From a virus (taxonomy: Duplodnaviria > Heunggongvirae > Uroviricota > Caudoviricetes), in the IMG/VR virus record IMGVR_UViG_641736224_000035: a DNA stretch of 25,810 nucleotides. The stretch is one strand, 5' to 3'. The position numbers and the translations under genes were made by a program. Shown piece by piece: positions 4,941-13,607 of this stretch. The notes beneath the pieces are model-generated. The model did not search any database. It was not told where the DNA came from and was given only the letters and a program-made list of their open reading frames with translations. The first letter of the stretch is position 1. Each line of letters starts with the position of its first letter.

Positions 4941-5096
4941 CGATACAAATAAAACATCAAATTAAATAAGAAAACGTGAAAACCATCCGTATTAATGGAG
5001 GTATTCGCACGCGTAAATAACGGAGATATAAAATGAAAGCAAAAGAAGAAGGCATTATCGACACATTAAAAAAAAATATCAGAAGCGGAAGATGAA

Positions 5097-5450
5097 ATGG
5101 CTAAAGATGCCGTGAAGCGTAGCCAACATATGGCAGCACTTCACGCACTGACCATTGCAAAAATCACCGCTGACGCAGCCAAAATTATTGAGGAACAGGG
5201 CAAAGAAATCGATACTCTTAAAACACAGTCAACAGTTGCAGCCATGAATCCGTCCAGCATTGGACGCCGCATTTACATTCTTGGTTCGGCAATAATGACG
5301 CAATACACCATTATTGCCGAACTGCACGGCAAATACCTGATAACGCCTTACCACACAAAAGAGTCAGAGCTTCTGACAAATCTCCGCCTGATAGAACGCT
5401 CTCAAGCTGTATTCATTGATGACGCGCAACGTGCCGTATTTAACGCATAG
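5097..5450 (+). CDS. Hypothetical early protein (117 aa)
   Basis: ATG 5097 verified; follows an AT-rich spacer. Confidence 0.5.
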   Translation: MAKDAVKRSQHMAALHALTIAKITADAAKIIEEQGKEIDTLKTQSTVAAMNPSSIGRRIYILGSAIMTQYTIIAELHGKYLITPYHTKESELLTNLRLIERSQAVFIDDAQRAVFNA

Positions 5451-6236: not shown

Positions 6237-6358
6237 GAAACCAGAACATGCACACACAAAAAAACCGCTTGCCATGCCGCAATCAGTCAGGTTACATTTC
6301 CGCTGCACCTCATAAAACGGGTGCCGGGATTTCCACCCCGCTGACAACCAAAGCGCAC

Positions 6359-6379
6359 AACCGCGCCAGCGGTTTTTTT
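6359..6379 (+). terminator. Candidate rho-independent terminator inside the early region
   Basis: Stem aaccgc/gcggtt (6359-6364 / 6369-6374, loop gcca) followed by a T7 run to 6379. Confidence 0.55.
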
Positions 6380-6420
6380 GTGCGTACCGTATCGCCACGT
6401 CTTTTTCGCACACGAATTAT

Positions 6421-6499
6421 GGTGGGGCGTACAGGGCCGACTTCGGTCGGGCCGGGTTCTTTGGTTGCCGGTTGTGGAAACCCTGTACGTCTCACCACC
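6421..6499 (+). other. Candidate structured RNA element (nested GC-rich stems with UUCG tetraloop)
   Basis: ggtgg (6421-6425) pairs ccacc (6495-6499); cgtacaggg (6428-6436) pairs ccctgtacg (6481-6489); inner hairpin ccgac-ttcg-gtcgg (6437-6450). Not a tRNA cloverleaf. Function unknown. Confidence 0.3.
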
Positions 6500-6558
6500 C
6501 CGAGTTTTCCACCTCTGGATGGTGAGTTTTCAAAACTTACAACCAAAGAGGCCACCCC

Positions 6559-6864: not shown

Positions 6865-7250
6865 TTGACGCTCATGACTTCACAAGATGGGTGCGCACAC
6901 AGGACACCCGTCTGGCTCCCGTTCTTCAGGGATTATTTGATCTCTACATCCGTGGTCGTGACAACAGAGCACGCACCACAAAACCGGAGAATGCAGACAC
7001 CCTTTATTTCACAGTAGACGACTGCTACCGCGTGGACTTCACACCACACGGGCTGGCGTTGCACTGCCTGACACCACACGGAGAATCACTGCTGGCGTAT
7101 TACGACTCCCCGGCCTCCGTATTTGCGGCAATGCTGGCGCATCGCACTGCTGGCGGGTGTGCCTCGCTGAGTGAATACACCGCTGAATTTAACCGCCTTT
7201 CTGCCCTCTTCTCGCAGGAGTGGCAGCGCGTGACGGGATACCAGCCATGA
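6861..7250 (+). CDS. Hypothetical protein upstream of the replication gene (129 aa)
   Basis: ATG 6861 verified; stop overlaps the A start (ATGA at 7247-7250). Confidence 0.55.
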   Translation: MIDAHDFTRWVRTQDTRLAPVLQGLFDLYIRGRDNRARTTKPENADTLYFTVDDCYRVDFTPHGLALHCLTPHGESLLAYYDSPASVFAAMLAHRTAGGCASLSEYTAEFNRLSALFSQEWQRVTGYQP

Positions 7251-10087
7251 ATGAGTTTGCATGGAGCTGGAATGAACCACGGCCAGCCATTGATCCGGCC
7301 AGATTTACGGAGCACAGGCAGGAAACTGAAACCGACCTGCAACGCGCCATCCGTTACTACCTTGAGGCAGACAAAAAGGCTCTGGAAGAACAGGAAGCGA
7401 AGGAGGAAGCCTTTTTCGCACAATCCACCGTGGGTAAAAAACTCATGGCATCCCTTGAGGAAGCCGGACAGCGTGAAAAGCTGGCACAAAGCATCATCAG
7501 CAAGCGTCAGGCAACAGAACAAGACCCGGTGGCCCGTGCTTTTGCCACACTGAAGGTGCTTCCCGTTTATCTGCGTGAACCTCTGAGCCGCCACCTCTCT
7601 TTCCTGCGCAAAAAACAGGAAGCCGATCGCCAGAAAGGCAAAAAGAGCTGGCAGGCTGAACGCTACGCGCGCGGAACCCTGCGCAAAATATTCGAACGCC
7701 TGGACCGCACCGACCACCGCTGGCTGACACCGGGTTATCGCTCCCTTGCCGGACGCGAACGCCTGGATGATTTGCTTTACCTGCCGCAGCTCAACAAGCA
7801 CCAGATACAGACGCTGGCCACCATGACGGCGGCGATGTTCAGCAGCACCTTCGAAAAACTCTGCGATGGCTTTGGCGCGACCGATGGTGAGCTGACCATG
7901 GATGTAACGCTGAAGGCGTATCAGATGCTGGCCCGCATGGCGTTACACCTGCACGCCATGCCTCCACATTATGACGCACTGACAACAGACAAAGACCGGA
8001 GGAACGAACCGGACACGGAGCTGCTGCCGGGCGCAATCCTTCGCCTGACCTGTGCGGAATGGTGGAAACGCAAACTGTGGCTGTTACGTTGCGAGTGGCG
8101 GGAAGAACAACTCCGCGCCGCCTGTCTGGTTTCCAGAAAAACATCACCCTATCTGAGCCAGGACGCGTTAAGCGAGTTTCGCGCACAGCGCGAGAAAACA
8201 CGCGATTTCCTGAAAAGTTTCATGCTGGAAAATGAAGACGGGTTCACGATTGATCTCGAGACGGTGTATTACGCGGGAGTAAGTAACCCGGTTCACCGTA
8301 AGGCAGAAATGATGGCCACCATGAAGGGGCTGGAACTTCTGGCCGAAGCCCGTGGCGACAGAGCGGTGTTTCTGACTGTCACCTGCCCGTCAAAATACCA
8401 CGCAACAACGGAGAACGGTCATCCGAATCCCAAATGGAACGGGGCCACAATGCGCGACTCCAGCGATTACCTGGTTAACACGTTTTTTGCGGCGGTCCGC
8501 AAAAAACTGAACCGCGACGGCCTGCGCTGGTATGGCATCCGCACGGTGGAGCCTCACCATGACGGCACTGTGCACTGGCATATGATGGTCTTTGCACATC
8601 CGGACGAGATTGAAACCATCGTGTCCCACGTCTGCGATATTGCCATTCAGGAAGACCGCCACGAGCTGGGCGATGACATAACTCCGCGTTTTAAGGCGGA
8701 GTACGTCGACGGCTCAAAAGGCACGCCAACCAGCTACATCGCCACCTACATCGGAAAGAACCTGGACAGCCGCGCCGTGGATGGCATCGACCCGAAAACG
8801 GGCAAGCCACGCGTTGACCACGAAACAGGTAAATCAATGGCCGAGAGCGTGGAGCGCGCCATCGGCTGGGCGCGCCTTCACCGGGTCCGTCAGTTCCAGT
8901 TCTTTGGCATCCCCTCCCGTCAGGTGTGGCGTGAACTGCGCCGCCTTGCCAGCCAGATGGCACGCAATCCGGAAGGCCCGCAACGGCTGAAGGATGACGC
9001 AATGGACGCGGTACTCGCTGCCGCTGATGCCGGATGTTTTGCCACCTACATTGAGAAACAGGGTGGCGTACTTGTTCCACGCAAAGACTACCTGATTCGC
9101 ACCGCCTACGACCTCGCAGATGAGCTGAACGATTACGGTGAACAGAGCGTACAGATTTACGGGATCTGGTCGCCGCTCATTGGGGAGTCTTCCCGCGTAT
9201 GCACGCATCCGGATAACTGGAAGCTGGTAAGACGCAAACCGGAAGCGGAAGACAGCGCCCGCGAAAATGGTTTTGACCTTCAGGGCGGCCCTGCCGCCCC
9301 TTGGACTCGTGGCAATAACTGTCCCCGTGTACAGGAAACAGGCAACAACGGGACAGAACAGCCGGAAGAACGGCCAGCACCGTGGCCGCAGCTTCCTGAC
9401 GGCGTTGAAGTAAATGAATGGATGCGCTCACTGAAACGGCACGAACGCCGGGCGCTGATGCGTTCGCTTCGTGACAAACAGGCAAAAAACAGCAGCGATG
9501 AAATGCAGAACTGGACACAGAGCCGCAAACAGCAGCGGCCTTTGCCTGATAACCACGAGTTACTCGCTAAAGAATGGCGGGAGTCTGCTGAATCTCTCGG
9601 CCTGCATATCGGTGAACAACAGATGCAGCACCTGTTACGGGGCGGCAGTCTGTACGTTGACGGCAGCATCATTGCACCGCAGGGATTTGAAATTGTACGC
9701 AAACCGGATACCCGCCCGGACAGCCGAATCACGCAGCTCTGGCAGCGTCTGAGCCGTAATCATGGCGTAAGCAGCACGGAGATCCGCCATAACCCGGTCG
9801 CCAGCTATCTGGCACAGCTGGGGGCATCAGACCCTGAAGCCGCCGCACGCCTGGCATCCACACTTCAGCAGGACCAGAACACCATGAAAACACCCGTTAC
9901 CGTGCTTTCTGACATGCTGCGCGCCATCCGCGACGCAGAGCACGCACAGAGAATCAGTGAAACCACTGAACGCGCCAGCCGCAAAGCAGACCTGCTGCGG
10001 GGTGGCCTGACCAGTGGAAACAAAAAACAGACAGAAACGGGACTCACGAATCCCGTAAATGAGCAAAAAACGCGCAGCGATATATGA
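7247..10087 (+). CDS. A: Rolling-circle replication initiation endonuclease (P2 gpA family), about 946 aa
   Basis: Central region ...VFLTVTCPSKYH...TVHWHMMVF...TPTSYIATYIGKN... matches the gpA-type HUH/tyrosine nicking motif as remembered. Start taken at ATG 7247; the GTG at 7220 is an alternative. Confidence 0.85.
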   Translation: MNEFAWSWNEPRPAIDPARFTEHRQETETDLQRAIRYYLEADKKALEEQEAKEEAFFAQSTVGKKLMASLEEAGQREKLAQSIISKRQATEQDPVARAFATLKVLPVYLREPLSRHLSFLRKKQEADRQKGKKSWQAERYARGTLRKIFERLDRTDHRWLTPGYRSLAGRERLDDLLYLPQLNKHQIQTLATMTAAMFSSTFEKLCDGFGATDGELTMDVTLKAYQMLARMALHLHAMPPHYDALTTDKDRRNEPDTELLPGAILRLTCAEWWKRKLWLLRCEWREEQLRAACLVSRKTSPYLSQDALSEFRAQREKTRDFLKSFMLENEDGFTIDLETVYYAGVSNPVHRKAEMMATMKGLELLAEARGDRAVFLTVTCPSKYHATTENGHPNPKWNGATMRDSSDYLVNTFFAAVRKKLNRDGLRWYGIRTVEPHHDGTVHWHMMVFAHPDEIETIVSHVCDIAIQEDRHELGDDITPRFKAEYVDGSKGTPTSYIATYIGKNLDSRAVDGIDPKTGKPRVDHETGKSMAESVERAIGWARLHRVRQFQFFGIPSRQVWRELRRLASQMARNPEGPQRLKDDAMDAVLAAADAGCFATYIEKQGGVLVPRKDYLIRTAYDLADELNDYGEQSVQIYGIWSPLIGESSRVCTHPDNWKLVRRKPEAEDSARENGFDLQGGPAAPWTRGNNCPRVQETGNNGTEQPEERPAPWPQLPDGVEVNEWMRSLKRHERRALMRSLRDKQAKNSSDEMQNWTQSRKQQRPLPDNHELLAKEWRESAESLGLHIGEQQMQHLLRGGSLYVDGSIIAPQGFEIVRKPDTRPDSRITQLWQRLSRNHGVSSTEIRHNPVASYLAQLGASDPEAAARLASTLQQDQNTMKTPVTVLSDMLRAIRDAEHAQRISETTERASRKADLLRGGLTSGNKKQTETGLTNPVNEQKTRSDI

Positions 10088-10136
10088 GGCGCGCACAAAA
10101 CAGGCAAAAACGGGATTTCAGAATCCCGTAAACGAT
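10035..10136. repeat. Two 29-bp dyad-containing direct repeats (candidate parC-like centromere/operator)
   Basis: aaacgggactcacgaatcccgtaaatga (10035-10063, inside the last codons of A) and aaacgggatttcagaatcccgtaaacga (10108-10136, intergenic); each holds an inverted repeat acggga...tcccgt. They sit directly upstream of the ParM-like gene. Confidence 0.45.
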
Positions 10137-10163
10137 TAATTAATCAACATAAGGAAAACCGAC

Positions 10164-11123
10164 ATGAAAATTTACATCGACGACGGCTCCACCAACATCA
10201 AGCTGGCATGGACTGAGAACGGCGAACGCCGCAACGCCATCAGCCCGAACAGCTTCAAGTCGGAATGGTCTGCGCCGTTCGGTGGCTCGCAGCCTGCTAA
10301 CTACATGCTTGATGGCGTGCGCTATGGTTTTGATCCGGTCAGCGATCGCTTTGTCCAGACGACCGACACGCAATACCAGTACAGCGATGTGAATGTCATT
10401 GCCATTCATCACGCGCTGGTCAAATCAGACATCACGCCACAGGAAGTGGATGTGGTTGTTACCCTGCCACTGAGCGAATATTTCGACACAAACGCACAGC
10501 CGGACATGGCCAACATCAACCGCAAAAAAGCGAACGTCATGCGCCCGGTGGAGTACCAGAACGGCGAAGCATTCACTATCCGTAACGTACGGGTTATGCC
10601 TGAATCCATTCCGGCTGGCTTTAAAGCACTGGCTGACATGAGTCCGTTTGAATCCCTGCTGATTGTGGATTTGGGCGGAACCACGCTGGATGTGGCAAAG
10701 GTTCAGGGGCAACTGGCAGGTATCAGCCAGGTGTTTTGCGATCCACACGTAGGCGTTTCTCTTATGGCCGATGCCGTACTGTCGGTGATGGCCACTAACG
10801 GTATGCGCACCAGTCACCACATCGCCAATACCATTATCGAACATCGCCATAATGAAGCCTGGCTGCGCCAGCACATCCACAATGACGCGCATTACGCCAG
10901 CCTGATGGCGGTTATTCGTGAAAAGGAAGAAACACTGAAACAACGCGTGATCCGCGCGCTGGCGGTTTTTTCGGGTTACGGGCGGGTGATGGTTGTCGGT
11001 GGCGGGGCGGAGATTGTGGCACCCGCTATCCGCGAAGCCTGCGGAGTTAATGCGACTTTCATCGCGGACGGGGTGCCACAGTTTGCTCTGGTTAATGGGC
11101 TGTACGCAATGGACAAGGAGTAA
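10164..11123 (+). CDS. parM: Actin-like segregation ATPase, ParM/StbA family (319 aa)
   Basis: Recognised blocks shared with plasmid R1 ParM: MKIYIDDGSTNIKLAW, ISPNSFKSEW, YSDVNVIAIHHAL, VMPESIPAGF, SLLIVDLGGTTLDV, GYGRVMVVGGGAEIV, ALVNGLYAM. AAGGA Shine-Dalgarno before ATG 10164. Confidence 0.85.
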   Translation: MKIYIDDGSTNIKLAWTENGERRNAISPNSFKSEWSAPFGGSQPANYMLDGVRYGFDPVSDRFVQTTDTQYQYSDVNVIAIHHALVKSDITPQEVDVVVTLPLSEYFDTNAQPDMANINRKKANVMRPVEYQNGEAFTIRNVRVMPESIPAGFKALADMSPFESLLIVDLGGTTLDVAKVQGQLAGISQVFCDPHVGVSLMADAVLSVMATNGMRTSHHIANTIIEHRHNEAWLRQHIHNDAHYASLMAVIREKEETLKQRVIRALAVFSGYGRVMVVGGGAEIVAPAIREACGVNATFIADGVPQFALVNGLYAMDKE

Positions 11124-11127
11124 ACCA

Positions 11128-11439
11128 ATGACGACACCAACCAGACGGATAAGTTTCTATCTGAAGCCCGCCGCCGTCAAGAACGAAGGAGAAGCATGCG
11201 CCTGGCTGGACAGCCTTACACCAGAAGCCCGCAAAAGCGGCCAACGCGTGGCTTTTCTGGCCGGGCTGGCACTTCTGAAGACGAATCCGGCAGAGGCTTA
11301 CCGACTGGCCGCATGGGCTGATGATGAGATGTTACCTGTGACACAAATCAGCTCAAAAAAGTTTGAAGCACAGTCTGCACCAGTGGCTAAGATAACCAGC
11401 CAGATGGCTGGGAATATCCGGGCGTTATTTCCTGAGTAA
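11128..11439 (+). CDS. parR: ParR-like centromere-binding adaptor (103 aa)
   Basis: Immediately follows parM (AAGGAG Shine-Dalgarno, ATG 11128). N-terminal RISFYLKP...LDSLTPEARKSGQRVAFLAGLAL resembles the remembered ribbon-helix-helix N-terminus of R1 ParR. Start is an internal Met of track ORF 10993..11439. Confidence 0.65.
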   Translation: MTTPTRRISFYLKPAAVKNEGEACAWLDSLTPEARKSGQRVAFLAGLALLKTNPAEAYRLAAWADDEMLPVTQISSKKFEAQSAPVAKITSQMAGNIRALFPE

Positions 11440-11525
11440 AAGCATCTGCGCGAAAAATGCTCACGTTTATAGAGACAGTATCATTCCATTTGGCACACTT
11501 ACTTCAATAATCGATCTGTTAAACA

Positions 11526-11596
11526 AATAGATTGTCTATTATCTATCGATTAAAACGATCAATTATCTTGACAGTAATGTGCCTTTTTGTAAGATC
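11526..11596 (+). promoter_or_regulatory. Candidate sigma70 promoter with upstream dyad operator
   Basis: TTGACA at 11568-11573; TAAGAT at 11590-11595 (16-bp spacer) or AAGATC at 11591-11596 (17-bp spacer); upstream symmetric motifs AATAGA/TCTATT (11526-11531 / 11535-11540) and ATAGAT/ATCTAT (11527-11532 / 11541-11546), flanked by two ATCGAT sites (11510-11515, 11545-11550). Confidence 0.4.
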
Positions 11597-11645
11597 GTTC
11601 GCATTGTGAGCGACAAGATAATTGCGCGGCATTGTCCATGCAAAA

Positions 11646-11673
11646 CGCCCCAATAGCAGCAACTATTGGGGCG
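11646..11673 (+). other. Stable hairpin in the leader of the 89-aa gene
   Basis: Perfect 11-bp inverted repeat cgccccaatag / ctattggggcg with 6-nt loop cagcaa. Confidence 0.4.
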
Positions 11674-11701
11674 TAAAACTCGGTCGGACTCACTTAACCT
11701 G

Positions 11702-11787
11702 ATATGCGTGCCTTCCGAAGTAAATCAAAATGTGCGTCGTATATTTTATTGCTTACACGCACCTCTGTAAAGGCACGCATATTTTTC
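11702..11787 (+). terminator. Candidate attenuator or small-RNA terminator (long-range 13-bp inverted repeat followed by T5)
   Basis: atatgcgtgcctt (11702-11714) is the exact reverse complement of aaggcacgcatat (11770-11782), then ttttt (11783-11787); ends 16 nt before the GTG start at 11804. Confidence 0.3.
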
Positions 11788-11803
11788 CTATGAGGTAAAT
11801 AAA

Positions 11804-12073
11804 GTGCGGGCTAAAACAGGTATTTGCAAGAACCCTCATCGTTATAATCCAACATTTCTGTCTCTCCCTGAATATCAAGGACAAGAAGGTCGGCACAAAT
11901 GCGCTGCCTGTGCTTTTGAGCTAGGCATAAAAGATGCGCTTGAAGGACGCGCTATGGCTCAGAATGATTTAGTTTTAGCTAACATTCCGTTTAGCCAGGC
12001 TGGAACTGTAAGGCACAGAGATGCCTATGAAGCATATGTTCGTGGTTGGCGATTAATAAACAGCAACAATTGA
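11804..12073 (+). CDS. Hypothetical small Cys/His-containing protein (89 aa, GTG start)
   Basis: GTG 11804 with GAGG 8 nt upstream; stop TGA 12071-12073 followed by a strong terminator. Contains C8, H12, H31, C33-x2-C36 (possible zinc-binding). Family not recognised. Confidence 0.5.
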   Translation: MRAKTGICKNPHRYNPTFLSLPEYQGQEGRHKCAACAFELGIKDALEGRAMAQNDLVLANIPFSQAGTVRHRDAYEAYVRGWRLINSNN

Positions 12074-12081
12074 TACTTTTG

Positions 12082-12106
12082 AAGCGCCGATAAGGCGCTT
12101 TTTTTG
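12082..12106 (+). terminator. Rho-independent terminator
   Basis: Stem aagcgcc/ggcgctt (12082-12088 / 12094-12100, loop gataa) followed by a T-run to 12106. Confidence 0.7.
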
Positions 12107-12388
12107 TTTGCACGATAGTGCACAAGTTTGCACAATTTTTTTGAACGACTTTTTGTACTTCCGGCCCGCGTGGTGGCTGGATCCGTCAAGGATCCGTACG
12201 TGCACAAAAAAACGCGTTTTTTCTGCGCGCAAGTGACGGGGGAACAGCCCGCGTTTCAGGGGGGTAAATAGCGTTCCCTTAACGATGTCGCAGCGACACG
12301 ACAGAATGGCCGTATTTCTCACGCTGAGCGTGAAAAATACGTGAGGGATTCTGGTTTGATGGGGTGAAAGGTAAGGCCGTCAAAATCG

Positions 12389-12423
12389 CACTGAGGCGGC
12401 GAGAACATGCAGTCAGCGCAGTG
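12389..12423. other. Candidate cos (cohesive-end) region with dyad symmetry
   Basis: cactg...cagtg dyad around ggcggcgagaacatgcagt; the GGCG(A/G)G-rich core loosely resembles the remembered P2/186 cohesive end, and it lies where cos is expected (between the accessory interval and the 3' end of Q). Low confidence. Confidence 0.3.
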
Positions 12424-12509
12424 GGATTGCGTAAGAATCTGACCGTCGATGATGGCAATAAGCAGGAAAGCGTCGTGAAATTATCTGACTGATACAGGAG
12501 CTGGAGAGT

Positions 12510-12534
12510 CGGGGCATAAATTTTTTATGCCCCG
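12510..12534. other. Hairpin downstream of Q (possible bidirectional terminator)
   Basis: cggggcataaa / tttatgccccg perfect 11-bp inverted repeat with a 3-nt loop; no clean flanking U-run on either strand. Confidence 0.35.
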
Positions 12535-12560
12535 GCGAAGCAGCAGACAAGCGAAGCGCG

Positions 12561-13607
12561 TCAGGATGTGGGCTGGGTATCTAACAGTGCGTAAGGGTTA
12601 AAGCGGATCACCTCTTCGCCAAGCCAGTCATTGATGTGCTTCATGGCCTCCATGACGGGCATCAGCTCGTTAATTGCGTAAACCCGCGCGGCCTTCTCCA
12701 CATCACCAAACGCACTTTTTTCGCCCGGCATCGCCCCCATCAGTTGCGGCGGAACGCGGTGCGCAGCCAGCACATCATCACGGGATGCCGCCTTAACATT
12801 CATGAACTCATCCTTTGCGGTGATCTGCTGGAACGGCAAAATTTGCACCCCCTCTTTGCCCCCGTTGGGCGCATGAATGAGCACGTTTTTAAACGCACCA
12901 CCACCACGTGCCCCCTGTAGCGTTTCTTTCAGGGAGTCCATGCTTTCGCGGTTTACCTGCGCTGCACCGATGTAGATGATGCACCCGGCGTGGGATCCGT
13001 TGTCGTAGTACAGTTTTCTGAACATGTCCGCCGAATGAGAAAGGCTGGCCGAGAGTAATGCGCCAAGATATTCCGGCATGCCGTAGATTTCCTGGTTAAT
13101 ATCCGGATTCATCAGGTGGCACACTTTGCCAGGACGAAACTGAAACGCATCCTTGCCATCCTGCACATACCACCATGATTCAAGATCGCTTCCGCGTCGC
13201 ATGTATTTCGCCAGGGCGTGCCGTAATTTAAGCGGTTCGCCGAGCATATTGCTCCGAAGCTCAAGGAATGCGTTACCGAACACAAACCAGTCCAGCGCCA
13301 GCGCCGAGAAATCCTGCCGGGAAAGCAGCGGGTGCGGAATATAGCAGCCGAGCAATACATTGCGCTTAAAGTAAAGCGCAGACTGATGCCAGGACGTTTG
13401 CCGGGCAGCTCTTGCCAGACCGTACCAGTCCACTGGGGTTTCATACCACCGCCCGTTATCAGCACAGTACATATTGTCCAGCAGGTCATGCCCGGTCAGG
13501 CGATAAGGACCATCAAATGTGAATGCACTGAGCGATGATTCTTTCCTGAGCGCATCAGCGAGATCAATGCGTGAACTCATGCGCACTTTTTTATTTTTTC
13601 TGCTCAT
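12561..13607 (-). CDS. Q: Portal protein (P2 gpQ family)
   Basis: 348-aa ORF adjacent to and co-oriented with the large terminase, overlapping its stop by one nt; sequence recognised as Q-like. ATG 13605-13607 verified. Confidence 0.85.
   Translation of the reverse strand: MSRKNKKVRMSSRIDLADALRKESSLSAFTFDGPYRLTGHDLLDNMYCADNGRWYETPVDWYGLARAARQTSWHQSALYFKRNVLLGCYIPHPLLSRQDFSALALDWFVFGNAFLELRSNMLGEPLKLRHALAKYMRRGSDLESWWYVQDGKDAFQFRPGKVCHLMNPDINQEIYGMPEYLGALLSASLSHSADMFRKLYYDNGSHAGCIIYIGAAQVNRESMDSLKETLQGARGGGAFKNVLIHAPNGGKEGVQILPFQQITAKDEFMNVKAASRDDVLAAHRVPPQLMGAMPGEKSAFGDVEKAARVYAINELMPVMEAMKHINDWLGEEVIRFNPYALLDTQPTS

Follow-up and report, generated by a model that had tools for sequence, protein, structure and literature searches.

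A probable ParMRC-type segregation cassette beside a cos-adjacent variable slot in a P88-like prophage of the P2 family

Does an actin-like parMR gene pair lying between replication gene A and portal gene Q of a P2-family prophage belong to the variable cargo of this interval, or is it a fixed part of the phage? We examined this question in the viral record IMGVR_UViG_641736224_000035, a stretch of 25,810 nucleotides (nt) that was analysed as a whole (hereafter designated the window). A previous interpretation made from the letters of the window without database searches (hereafter the sequence-only reading) had seen in the A-cos-Q interval either a prophage-borne partition module or a new accessory system using an actin-like protein, accompanied by an autonomous small-gene cassette. 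The evidence presented below favours the partition module and suggests, with a probability of about 0.72, that the interval is made of two unrelated parts, that is, a ParMRC-type segregation cassette at 10021–11439 belonging to the core of the lineage, and a cos-adjacent variable slot at 11440–12108 holding a moron-type cassette for a protein of 89 amino acids (aa). The main features are as follows.

7220–10087, plus strand: replication gene A of the P88 type, left anchor (Pfam Phage_GPA, 1.5e-129; "replication endonuclease" in FRIK944 and P88).
10021–10135, no strand assigned: candidate parC, two 42-nt direct repeats (10021–10062 and 10094–10135) with 81% identity.
10164–11123, plus strand: parM, actin-like partition ATPase, 319 aa (Pfam and alignment with R1 ParM).
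11128–11439, plus strand: parR, stbB-type adaptor, 103 aa (PF10784 Plasmid_stab_B, 1e-23; phrog_2515, 2e-59).
11440–12108, no strand assigned: variable (hotspot) slot, between the end of parR and the conserved block next to cos (edges given by blastn at 11439 and at 12094/12109).
12109–12560, no strand assigned: conserved cos-proximal region, with a probable cos cut near 12153/12154 and three TGCAC repeats at 12109–12135.
12561–13607, minus strand: portal gene Q, right anchor, annotated as portal protein.

The window is 100% identical to the chromosome of Escherichia coli O157:H7 FRIK944 (NZ_CP016625) over the 3.4 kb compared (8000–11440), and its FRIK944 counterpart is a P2-family prophage integrated adjoining btuC. 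Interval 10000–12600 shares 97.5% identity with Escherichia phage 520873 and, in two pieces, 94–96% identity with P88, Citrobacter phage phiSM, and other members of Xuanwuvirus (Peduoviridae). By these matches, the window is a prophage of the P88-like genus Xuanwuvirus in the P2 family. Sixteen phage records and 80 IMG/VR loci have its A-parM-parR block uninterrupted, with 94–100% identity. Indeed, when the window was aligned by blastn with P88, phiSM, a plasmid-form genome (pZ1323PEC0009-2), and the 80 IMG/VR loci, homology spanned A, parM, and parR up to 11439, precisely where the parR stop codon ends (a minority of relatives lose it already within the 3' half of parR), and resumed after the slot at 12094 or 12109. 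Breakpoints of recombination within parR lay at about 11199, 11274, and 11324 in some of the loci L012–L091, from which it follows that cargo swaps sometimes carry the 3' half of parR along.

Prevalence data agreed with this picture. Among 5426 complete E. coli genomes, parMR DNA was detected in 1304 (~24%; 1278 at ≥80% coverage) and the 3' two kb of P88-type gene A in 1442 (1320 at ≥80% coverage); parMR is thus found in ~97% as many genomes as P88-type A (1278 versus 1320), these numbers being genome counts and not a locus-by-locus census of A–Q intervals. In our phage collection, ParM occurred only in P88-like records and in the phage-plasmid D6 (47% identity), and the same search found it absent from P2, 186, and the other phage records. 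Since D6 is the sole other carrier in that collection, parMR defines the P88-like lineage. As judged by these alignments and counts, parMR is a fixed, lineage-core part of P88-like phages and not hotspot cargo. The claim that the A–Q interval is a variable slot therefore holds for 11440–12108 and fails for parMR (10021–11439), through which homology runs until it breaks at 11439. Whether the genes are shared by most P2-like phages has likewise a divided answer, in that parMR is core to the P88-like lineage and absent from other phage records. For hotspot mining, the constant parMR should be subtracted from the gpA–gpQ "hotspot" of P88-like phages, in which cargo starts after parR.

The identity of the two genes is as the sequence-only reading had proposed. 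The 319-aa protein gives Pfam hits to StbA_N (1e-80) and to the C-terminal domain of ParM (3e-68). It can be aligned over its whole length with R1 ParM (1mwk; E = 7.7e-92) and retains the ParM nucleotide-binding motifs DDGSTNIK, PESIPAG, DLGGTTLD, and GGGAE; the sequence search that could have shown a lack of ParM/actin homology gave a strong ParM match instead. The parR open reading frame (ORF) begins 4 nt past the parM stop, and the family matches listed above mark its product as a ParR-like adaptor, for which no solved-structure relative was detectable by sequence. Both products fall into "partition protein" families of PHROGs and are named in RefSeq "plasmid segregation protein ParM" (WP_000708312) and "plasmid partitioning/stability family protein" (WP_000211267).

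Compared with the ParMRC system of plasmids R1/NR1 (stbAB/parA), the phage locus has a ParM that is homologous from end to end, with ~50% identity and every nucleotide-binding motif present, the same gene order (repeats-parM-parR), and a ParR of the same family, PF10784. It differs in being located on an integrating P2-family phage, right after gene A and with no detectable promoter of its own, in having as candidate centromere two 20-bp palindromes 73 bp apart in place of 2 × 5 eleven-bp iterons, in its short ParR (103 aa) with a conserved NIRALFPE end, and in its ParM clade, which stands apart from all plasmid copies (≤52% identity). At least 5000 plasmids in PLSDB carry a ParM homologue, with identities of up to ~52% except for six records at 95–99%, and those of the six that were examined hold a P88-like prophage or phage genome. 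In view of the low identity of the plasmid copies, the phage ParM is an old separate branch of the enterobacterial ParM family and not a recent plasmid pick-up.

Both genes bear the marks of selection, in different patterns. parM is intact in 81 of 81 copies, with a median ratio of nonsynonymous to synonymous substitution rates (dN/dS) of 0.06, and ParM is ≥98% identical across all 80 IMG/VR relatives. ParR, for its part, forms allele groups of ~100%, 83%, and 54% identity, the differences being concentrated in residues 18–92, among which the linker (66–92) is hypervariable; dN/dS was 0.13 for codons 1–65, 0.55 for the linker, and 0.05 for the last 11 codons (93–103). Divergent alleles show 54–58% identity over residues 18–65 versus 94–100% over residues 1–17 (including RRISFYL), and the C-terminal tail NI(R/Q)xxFP(E/K), NIRALFPE in the window, stays conserved among the alleles. 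This pattern matches what would be predicted for an adaptor that binds DNA with its N-terminus and ParM with its tail, the two being connected by a free linker.

The dyad repeats noted upstream of parM in the sequence-only reading were confirmed. Each of the 42-nt repeats holds an exact 20-bp palindrome, ACGGGA-N8-TCCCGT, one at 10037–10056, within the final codons of A, and the other at 10110–10129, in the spacer between A and parM. They are set 73 bp apart, and this sequence occurs exactly twice in the whole window. Both palindromes are kept in 42 of the 43 distinct upstream sequences obtained from the 80 IMG/VR relatives, with a spacing of 73 ± 1 bp, almost invariant arms, and a variable central 4 nt. 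Moreover, the arms persist beside the divergent ParR alleles. The two palindromes are the obvious parC candidate, to which ParR would bind.

Simple consensus scanning found no sigma-70-like site upstream of parM, be it between the dyads or beyond them, and a terminator scan found no plus-strand terminator between A and parM. As neither promoter nor terminator separates the two genes, parMR is most likely co-transcribed with the early replication operon. Such a distal early-operon position suggests that the targets are extrachromosomal circles, formed after infection or excision, and not the integrated prophage, and it argues against an exclusion function expressed in the lysogen. By analogy with R1 and with AlpAC of prophage CGP3, ParR dimers would bind the two palindromes at the A/parM junction via the N-terminal ribbon, the conserved C-terminal tail of ParR would capture ATP-ParM filaments, and the growing filaments would push or position circular phage genomes. 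Presumably, parMR would thus work on phage circles after infection or excision, and during occasional episomal carriage, but not on the integrated prophage.

The best functional precedent for such a step is AlpAC/alpS of CGP3, an early-induced actin-like protein with an adaptor that binds upstream of its own operon, tethering circular phage DNA; phage replication is efficient only when both proteins are present (Donovan et al. 2015, PMC4446434). The two systems share the adaptor site upstream of the operon and early genes acting on circular phage DNA, with the difference that this was shown experimentally for CGP3, while the P88-like system is known from its sequence; AlpC also belongs to a different actin-like family, for which a close sequence relationship is not expected, and the host of CGP3 is Gram-positive (Corynebacterium glutamicum).

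Several observations weigh against the segregation reading. The missing parM promoter comes from a simple consensus scan, and filament formation, ParR binding to the palindromes, and a phage phenotype are all drawn from sequence and analogy. Of the copies in complete E. coli genomes, more than 99.8% sit on the chromosome (1450 places versus 2 on plasmids), so that any benefit of parMR must come from a transient extrachromosomal phase. There are only two candidate ParR sites, against ten iterons in R1 parC, and, because dyad 1 lies within coding sequence, its conservation may merely mirror that of gene A. Furthermore, both dyads also score as minus-strand terminators in the terminator scan, and they could be RNA hairpins, since pairing as G–U on the plus strand is still possible with the substitutions seen in the arms (A to G at position 1, C to U at position 18). 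These last features, together with the low site count, would be accounted for if the dyads were no centromere and served as processing or stability hairpins in the A-parM transcript, or as minus-strand terminators stopping antisense transcription that arrives from the cargo/cos side, with the ParR site elsewhere. We regard this explanation as unlikely in view of the location of the dyads directly upstream of parM, as in R1 parC and alpS, of their fixed spacing of 73 bp (~7 helical turns), which is a DNA-level feature, and of the repeat search, which revealed no other repeat family near parMR.

A plasmid-type partition cassette on a phage genome recalls the phage-plasmids (D6 with ParM/StbA, P1 with ParAB, N15 with SopAB), which are obligate plasmid prophages, unlike the P88-like phages with their integrase and predominantly chromosomal location. 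Rousset et al. (PMC9122126) proposed that, with parMR, P88-like phages could be maintained as true plasmid prophages of low copy number and thereby have a second form of lysogeny. The 47%-identical StbA of D6 would fit this proposal, as would the circular 34,461-bp PLSDB "plasmid" NZ_CP148288 (L006), a complete P88-like genome with both integrase and parMR; the latter, possessing an integrase, could however be an excised replicative form. In P2-type phages, replication by gene A is part of the lytic early operon, and this mode fits quiet plasmid maintenance poorly. Together with the count of 1450 chromosomal places to 2 on plasmids, these considerations make a plasmid-prophage lifestyle improbable compared with a segregation cassette acting on transient phage circles. 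P88-like sequence was also observed within large plasmids (228–272 kb) of E. coli and Salmonella (NZ_CP110658.1 and NZ_MK439959.1).

We now turn to the slot. Its breakpoints were found in P88, phiSM, pZ1323PEC0009-2, and most IMG/VR relatives, and at least 19 slot types were distinguished among 57 loci with both anchors located, a sample biased towards close relatives of the ParM in the window. Besides the 89-aa cassette, the slot may contain an AbiLi/AbiLii-like pair, an RmrA-like protein with a PIN-like partner, a Doc/Fic-type toxin with its antitoxin, DUF4760-like membrane proteins, or ClpX-type zinc-finger proteins. The 89-aa cassette was present in 166 of the 5426 complete E. coli genomes, as against 1304 for parMR, and is replaced by other content in P88, phiSM, pZ1323PEC0009-2, and most IMG/VR loci. 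On these comparisons, 11440–12108 is a real cos-adjacent hotspot slot.

The slot ends close to cos. In the window, the linear record NC_049391 (P88_4B11) has both its termini at 12153/12154, ~45 nt past the slot end, which places cos between the cassette and Q, with 12153/12154 as the likely cut. Thus, with A ending at 10087 and Q at 12561, the interval corresponds to the gpA-cos-gpQ region, as previously proposed. The 19-mer of P2 cos was absent from the window even with 3 mismatches allowed, and the cos sequence of P88-like phages is therefore apparently another one. In six loci (L012, L013, L023, L024, L069, and L072), ~630 bp of extra DNA adjoin the Q stop (window 12564–12586), which by its position marks another small site of insertion, across cos from the slot.

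The following elements make up the small cassette.

11505–11595, plus strand: upstream block, with GATC at 11513, 11557, and 11592 and a sigma-70-like site, TTGACA-16-TAAGAT, at 11568–11595.
11645–11674, minus strand: perfect 12-bp hairpin with an A4 run to its left, reading as a minus-strand intrinsic terminator.
11743–11771, minus strand: promoter-like TTTACA-17-TAAAAT inside the leader (consensus scan).
11804–12073, plus strand: 89-aa gene with GTG start (WP_001594304; phrog_3941, 9e-49, function unknown), with conserved C8/H12/C33/C36 and an internal duplication.
12081–12101, plus strand: intrinsic terminator of the cassette, an 8-pair stem with 5 G–C pairs and a T-run.

Each element of the separate transcription unit described in the sequence-only reading (promoter, structured leader, 89-aa Cys/His gene, and strong terminator) was thus recovered. 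An 11-nt perfect inverted repeat (11560–11570 and 11614–11624) surrounds the promoter, the ~200-nt leader folds better than 200 of 200 shuffled sequences (z = −4.1), a Shine-Dalgarno GAGG precedes the GTG by 7 nt, and homology with other phages resumes immediately past the terminator. With a consensus-level promoter and a terminator of its own, breakpoints just outside them, and a position between conserved phage genes, the cassette has the build of a moron. It resembles the lambdoid morons also in that other phages have the promoter-gene-terminator unit at classic moron positions, after cI or after Q. In BIS08P22, a P22-like phage of Salmonella, a homologue with its own terminator lies just downstream of cI, and in a Providencia phage another, again with its own terminator, lies between antiterminator Q and the lysis genes.

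Two loci (L040 and L054) carry, in the same slot and behind the same promoter block, a second small-protein allele (92 aa, 53% identical), followed by an extra 95-aa ORF with no function assigned. Comparison with this allele separates conserved from drifting parts of the cassette. The upstream block is ~90% conserved, while synonymous sites of the ORF are saturated; three GATC sites are common to the two E. coli alleles; the hairpin arms and A-run are identical with diverged flanks; and the minus-strand promoter-like site and the hairpin both survive within a leader that otherwise diverges. The element CTGTAAAG (TTTACA on the minus strand) is present 35–40 nt upstream of the start codon in 4 of 4 divergent phage copies. 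As a lead from these positions, the minus-strand site and the hairpin would yield an antisense RNA of ~95 nt (~11736 to ~11640); a search of the interval against Rfam gave only non-significant matches at the hairpin (ctRNA_pGA1 and sar; E 0.2–0.3). A long-range stem before the Shine-Dalgarno, considered as a shared feature that the two alleles would build from different sequences, was dropped because the minimum-energy fold of L040 lacks it. In the enterobacterial phage copies, GATC is clustered at the cassette promoter, with 2–5 sites per 260 nt versus ~2 per kb across the loci (regions concerned: window 11505–11600, L004 3230–3440, and L008 3780–3960). In the E. coli version, one GATC extends over the 3' edge of the −10 element, and the same holds for the Providencia version. 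The leader elements could serve antisense control, Dam-sensitive control, or both.

Such an arrangement invites comparison with type I toxin-antitoxin modules, in which case the 89-aa protein would be harmful and the ~95-nt antisense RNA would restrain its translation. The retention of the minus-strand site and hairpin between alleles with saturated synonymous sites, the persistence of CTGTAAAG in four divergent phage copies, and the structured leader would all suit this explanation, which we nevertheless hold to be quite unlikely: the protein is hydrophilic and predicted to be well folded, unlike the small hydrophobic type I toxins, its family is widespread as a stand-alone gene in restriction-modification operons where no such antisense unit was seen, and the antisense RNA itself is a prediction.

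The moron-type cassette encodes a protein without named relatives. No match to the 89-aa protein was found in Pfam, NCBIfam, PADLOC, PDB (including a profile search of its sequences), or BFVD. A word-indexed search retrieved only two near-identical proteins, and exhaustive and profile searches were needed to reveal the family, the former giving 173 representatives at E ≤ 1e-3 and the latter at least 1589 clusters, all unnamed. Among 52 aligned members, R30, G41, Q65, R70, and H71 are invariant, and C8, H12, Q25, H31, C33, C36, S64, A77, and G81 are conserved in ≥90%. The motif LPxxQGxxGRHK..AYxxG appears twice, in the sequence as well as in the model, showing an internal duplication, with the Cys/His set falling in the N-terminus and the first of the two copies; these conserved residues probably form a zinc site. 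AlphaFold2 (AF2) gave a predicted local distance difference test score (pLDDT) of 92 and a predicted template modelling score (pTM) of 0.84 with an alignment, compared with a pLDDT of 43 without one. Between the window and the L040 allele (53% identity), the proportions of nonsynonymous (pN) and synonymous (pS) differences were 0.27 and 0.91, respectively, indicating that the ORF is under purifying selection. Ribosome modulation factor (PF04957) was tried as a relative and rejected, as 3 of the 52 members match it, the best (E = 0.0016) below the Pfam cut-off, and hhalign gave a probability of 4% over a motif of 23 residues.

Genomic contexts outside phages proved more informative. In all seven that were read, the homologue (85 aa) stands at the head or tail of, or adjoins, a type II restriction-modification operon; these contigs are of Bacteroidota type (metagenomes or metagenome-assembled genomes, L092–L104), and several lie inside integrative/conjugative elements. 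The operons encode a D12 (Dam-class) methyltransferase and a restriction enzyme, either of the DpnII family or a DUF6996/6997/7226 protein, the latter matching PADLOC REase_II at 4e-148. DUF3644 (PADLOC PDC-S19) is often present in them, with TIR_2, AbiEii, and RadC nearby, and the family domain is also found fused to HNH_2, NOV_C, DndB, and WYL proteins. Our best guess is that the 89-aa protein binds nucleic acids and has an accessory or regulatory part in restriction-type systems. In phages, which would carry it on its own, it could be a regulator, could mimic a controller, or could counteract restriction. Its position at the head or tail of operons with a D12 methyltransferase and a restriction enzyme is like that of the controller (C) proteins of type II restriction-modification systems. 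It differs from C proteins in that neither a helix-turn-helix nor another known fold was detected in it and in its four conserved Cys/His residues; a regulatory role is what we infer from the contexts. As with parMR, there are counterpoints, namely, that the slot of the window contains no partner restriction-modification genes, and that zinc binding, nucleic-acid binding, and a restriction link in E. coli are features we infer.

Two bolder interpretations can be formulated, which we put forward tentatively, as conjectures with the balance tilted against them. The first would have ParMRC provide an actin-driven extrachromosomal step in P88-like phages, either positioning or segregating rolling-circle products as AlpAC does in CGP3 or supporting a facultative plasmid-prophage state. 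In the second, the 89-aa protein would represent a new Cys/His class tied to GATC/Dam-type restriction-modification, acting in phages as an antisense-RNA-gated controller mimic or anti-restriction factor. If true, the ParMRC step would be, as far as we found, the first such case worked out for a P2-family E. coli phage. The parMR prophage pair is carried by ~24% of complete E. coli genomes, and we found no paper testing its function, which would show whether P2-family phages use an actin-like motor. The 89-aa family, with its at least 1589 clusters, recurs in type II restriction-modification operons and has no name, Pfam entry, or structural neighbour.

The arrangement itself has been described. 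Rousset et al. 2022 (PMC9122126) analysed the gpA–gpQ locus in 18,150 E. coli prophages and, for roughly one in four P2-like phages, noted a "putative plasmid partitioning system"; the combination of StbA, Plasmid_stab_B, and a hypothetical protein appears in their Table S5A as WP_000708312, WP_000211267, and WP_001594304, that is, exactly the present locus, so that the idea of an undescribed system must be given up. Our literature search located nothing functional for ParM/StbA in P2-like prophages, for Xuanwuvirus, or for WP_001594304. The gpA–gpQ (old/tin) hotspot of P2 (PMC9122126; PMC13586616) is the same locus, with the same A/Q bounds and adjoining cos, and sub-slot 11440–12108 behaves as a hotspot; in P88-like phages, however, the hotspot begins only past parR, parMR being constant, and the 89-aa gene falls under the 120-aa filter applied to stand-alone arrangements (PMC9122126) and was left out of those tests. 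The finding is thus ordinary for the P88-like lineage and already catalogued, and the 89-aa protein is a modest lead.

For the remaining notion of parMR as a new accessory system, be it exclusion of phages by actin-like filaments or incompatibility against ParMRC plasmids, we see very little chance: although parMR lies within a known defence hotspot and the adjoining slot has AbiL-like, RmrA-like, and Doc/Fic-like genes in relatives, parMR is constant and outside the breakpoints, nearly universal in the lineage, probably silent in a repressed prophage for lack of a detectable promoter of its own, and, with a ParM whose identity to the products of the at least 5000 plasmid ParM genes nowhere exceeds 52%, not expected to cross-react with plasmid centromeres, and PADLOC-DB 2.0 gave 0 families at E ≤ 1 for the 319-, 103-, and 89-aa proteins. 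NCBIfam likewise had nothing above cut-off for any of the three.

As to the surroundings, the genes, repeats, and cassette of the sequence-only reading were all found at their positions by the ORF map and by profile and repeat searches. Gene A encodes 955 aa counted from a GTG, the RefSeq start being 9 codons later, and terminase gene P is, like Q, on the minus strand in the ORF map. In the RefSeq annotation of the FRIK944 prophage (L007), an early-region gene is frameshifted and an "ash family" gene truncated (7003–7420 and 8218–8487, corresponding to window ~5030–5450 and 6250–6515), and this copy may therefore be partly decayed. The truncated ash gene overlaps two Rfam matches at gathering level, both on the plus strand, the Hfq-binding RNA isrK at 6305–6379 (64 bits) and a C4 antisense RNA at 6415–6502 (82 bits), which, standing side by side in the early region, suggest a control module similar to the c4/antirepressor type of P1/P7 in a P2-family phage.

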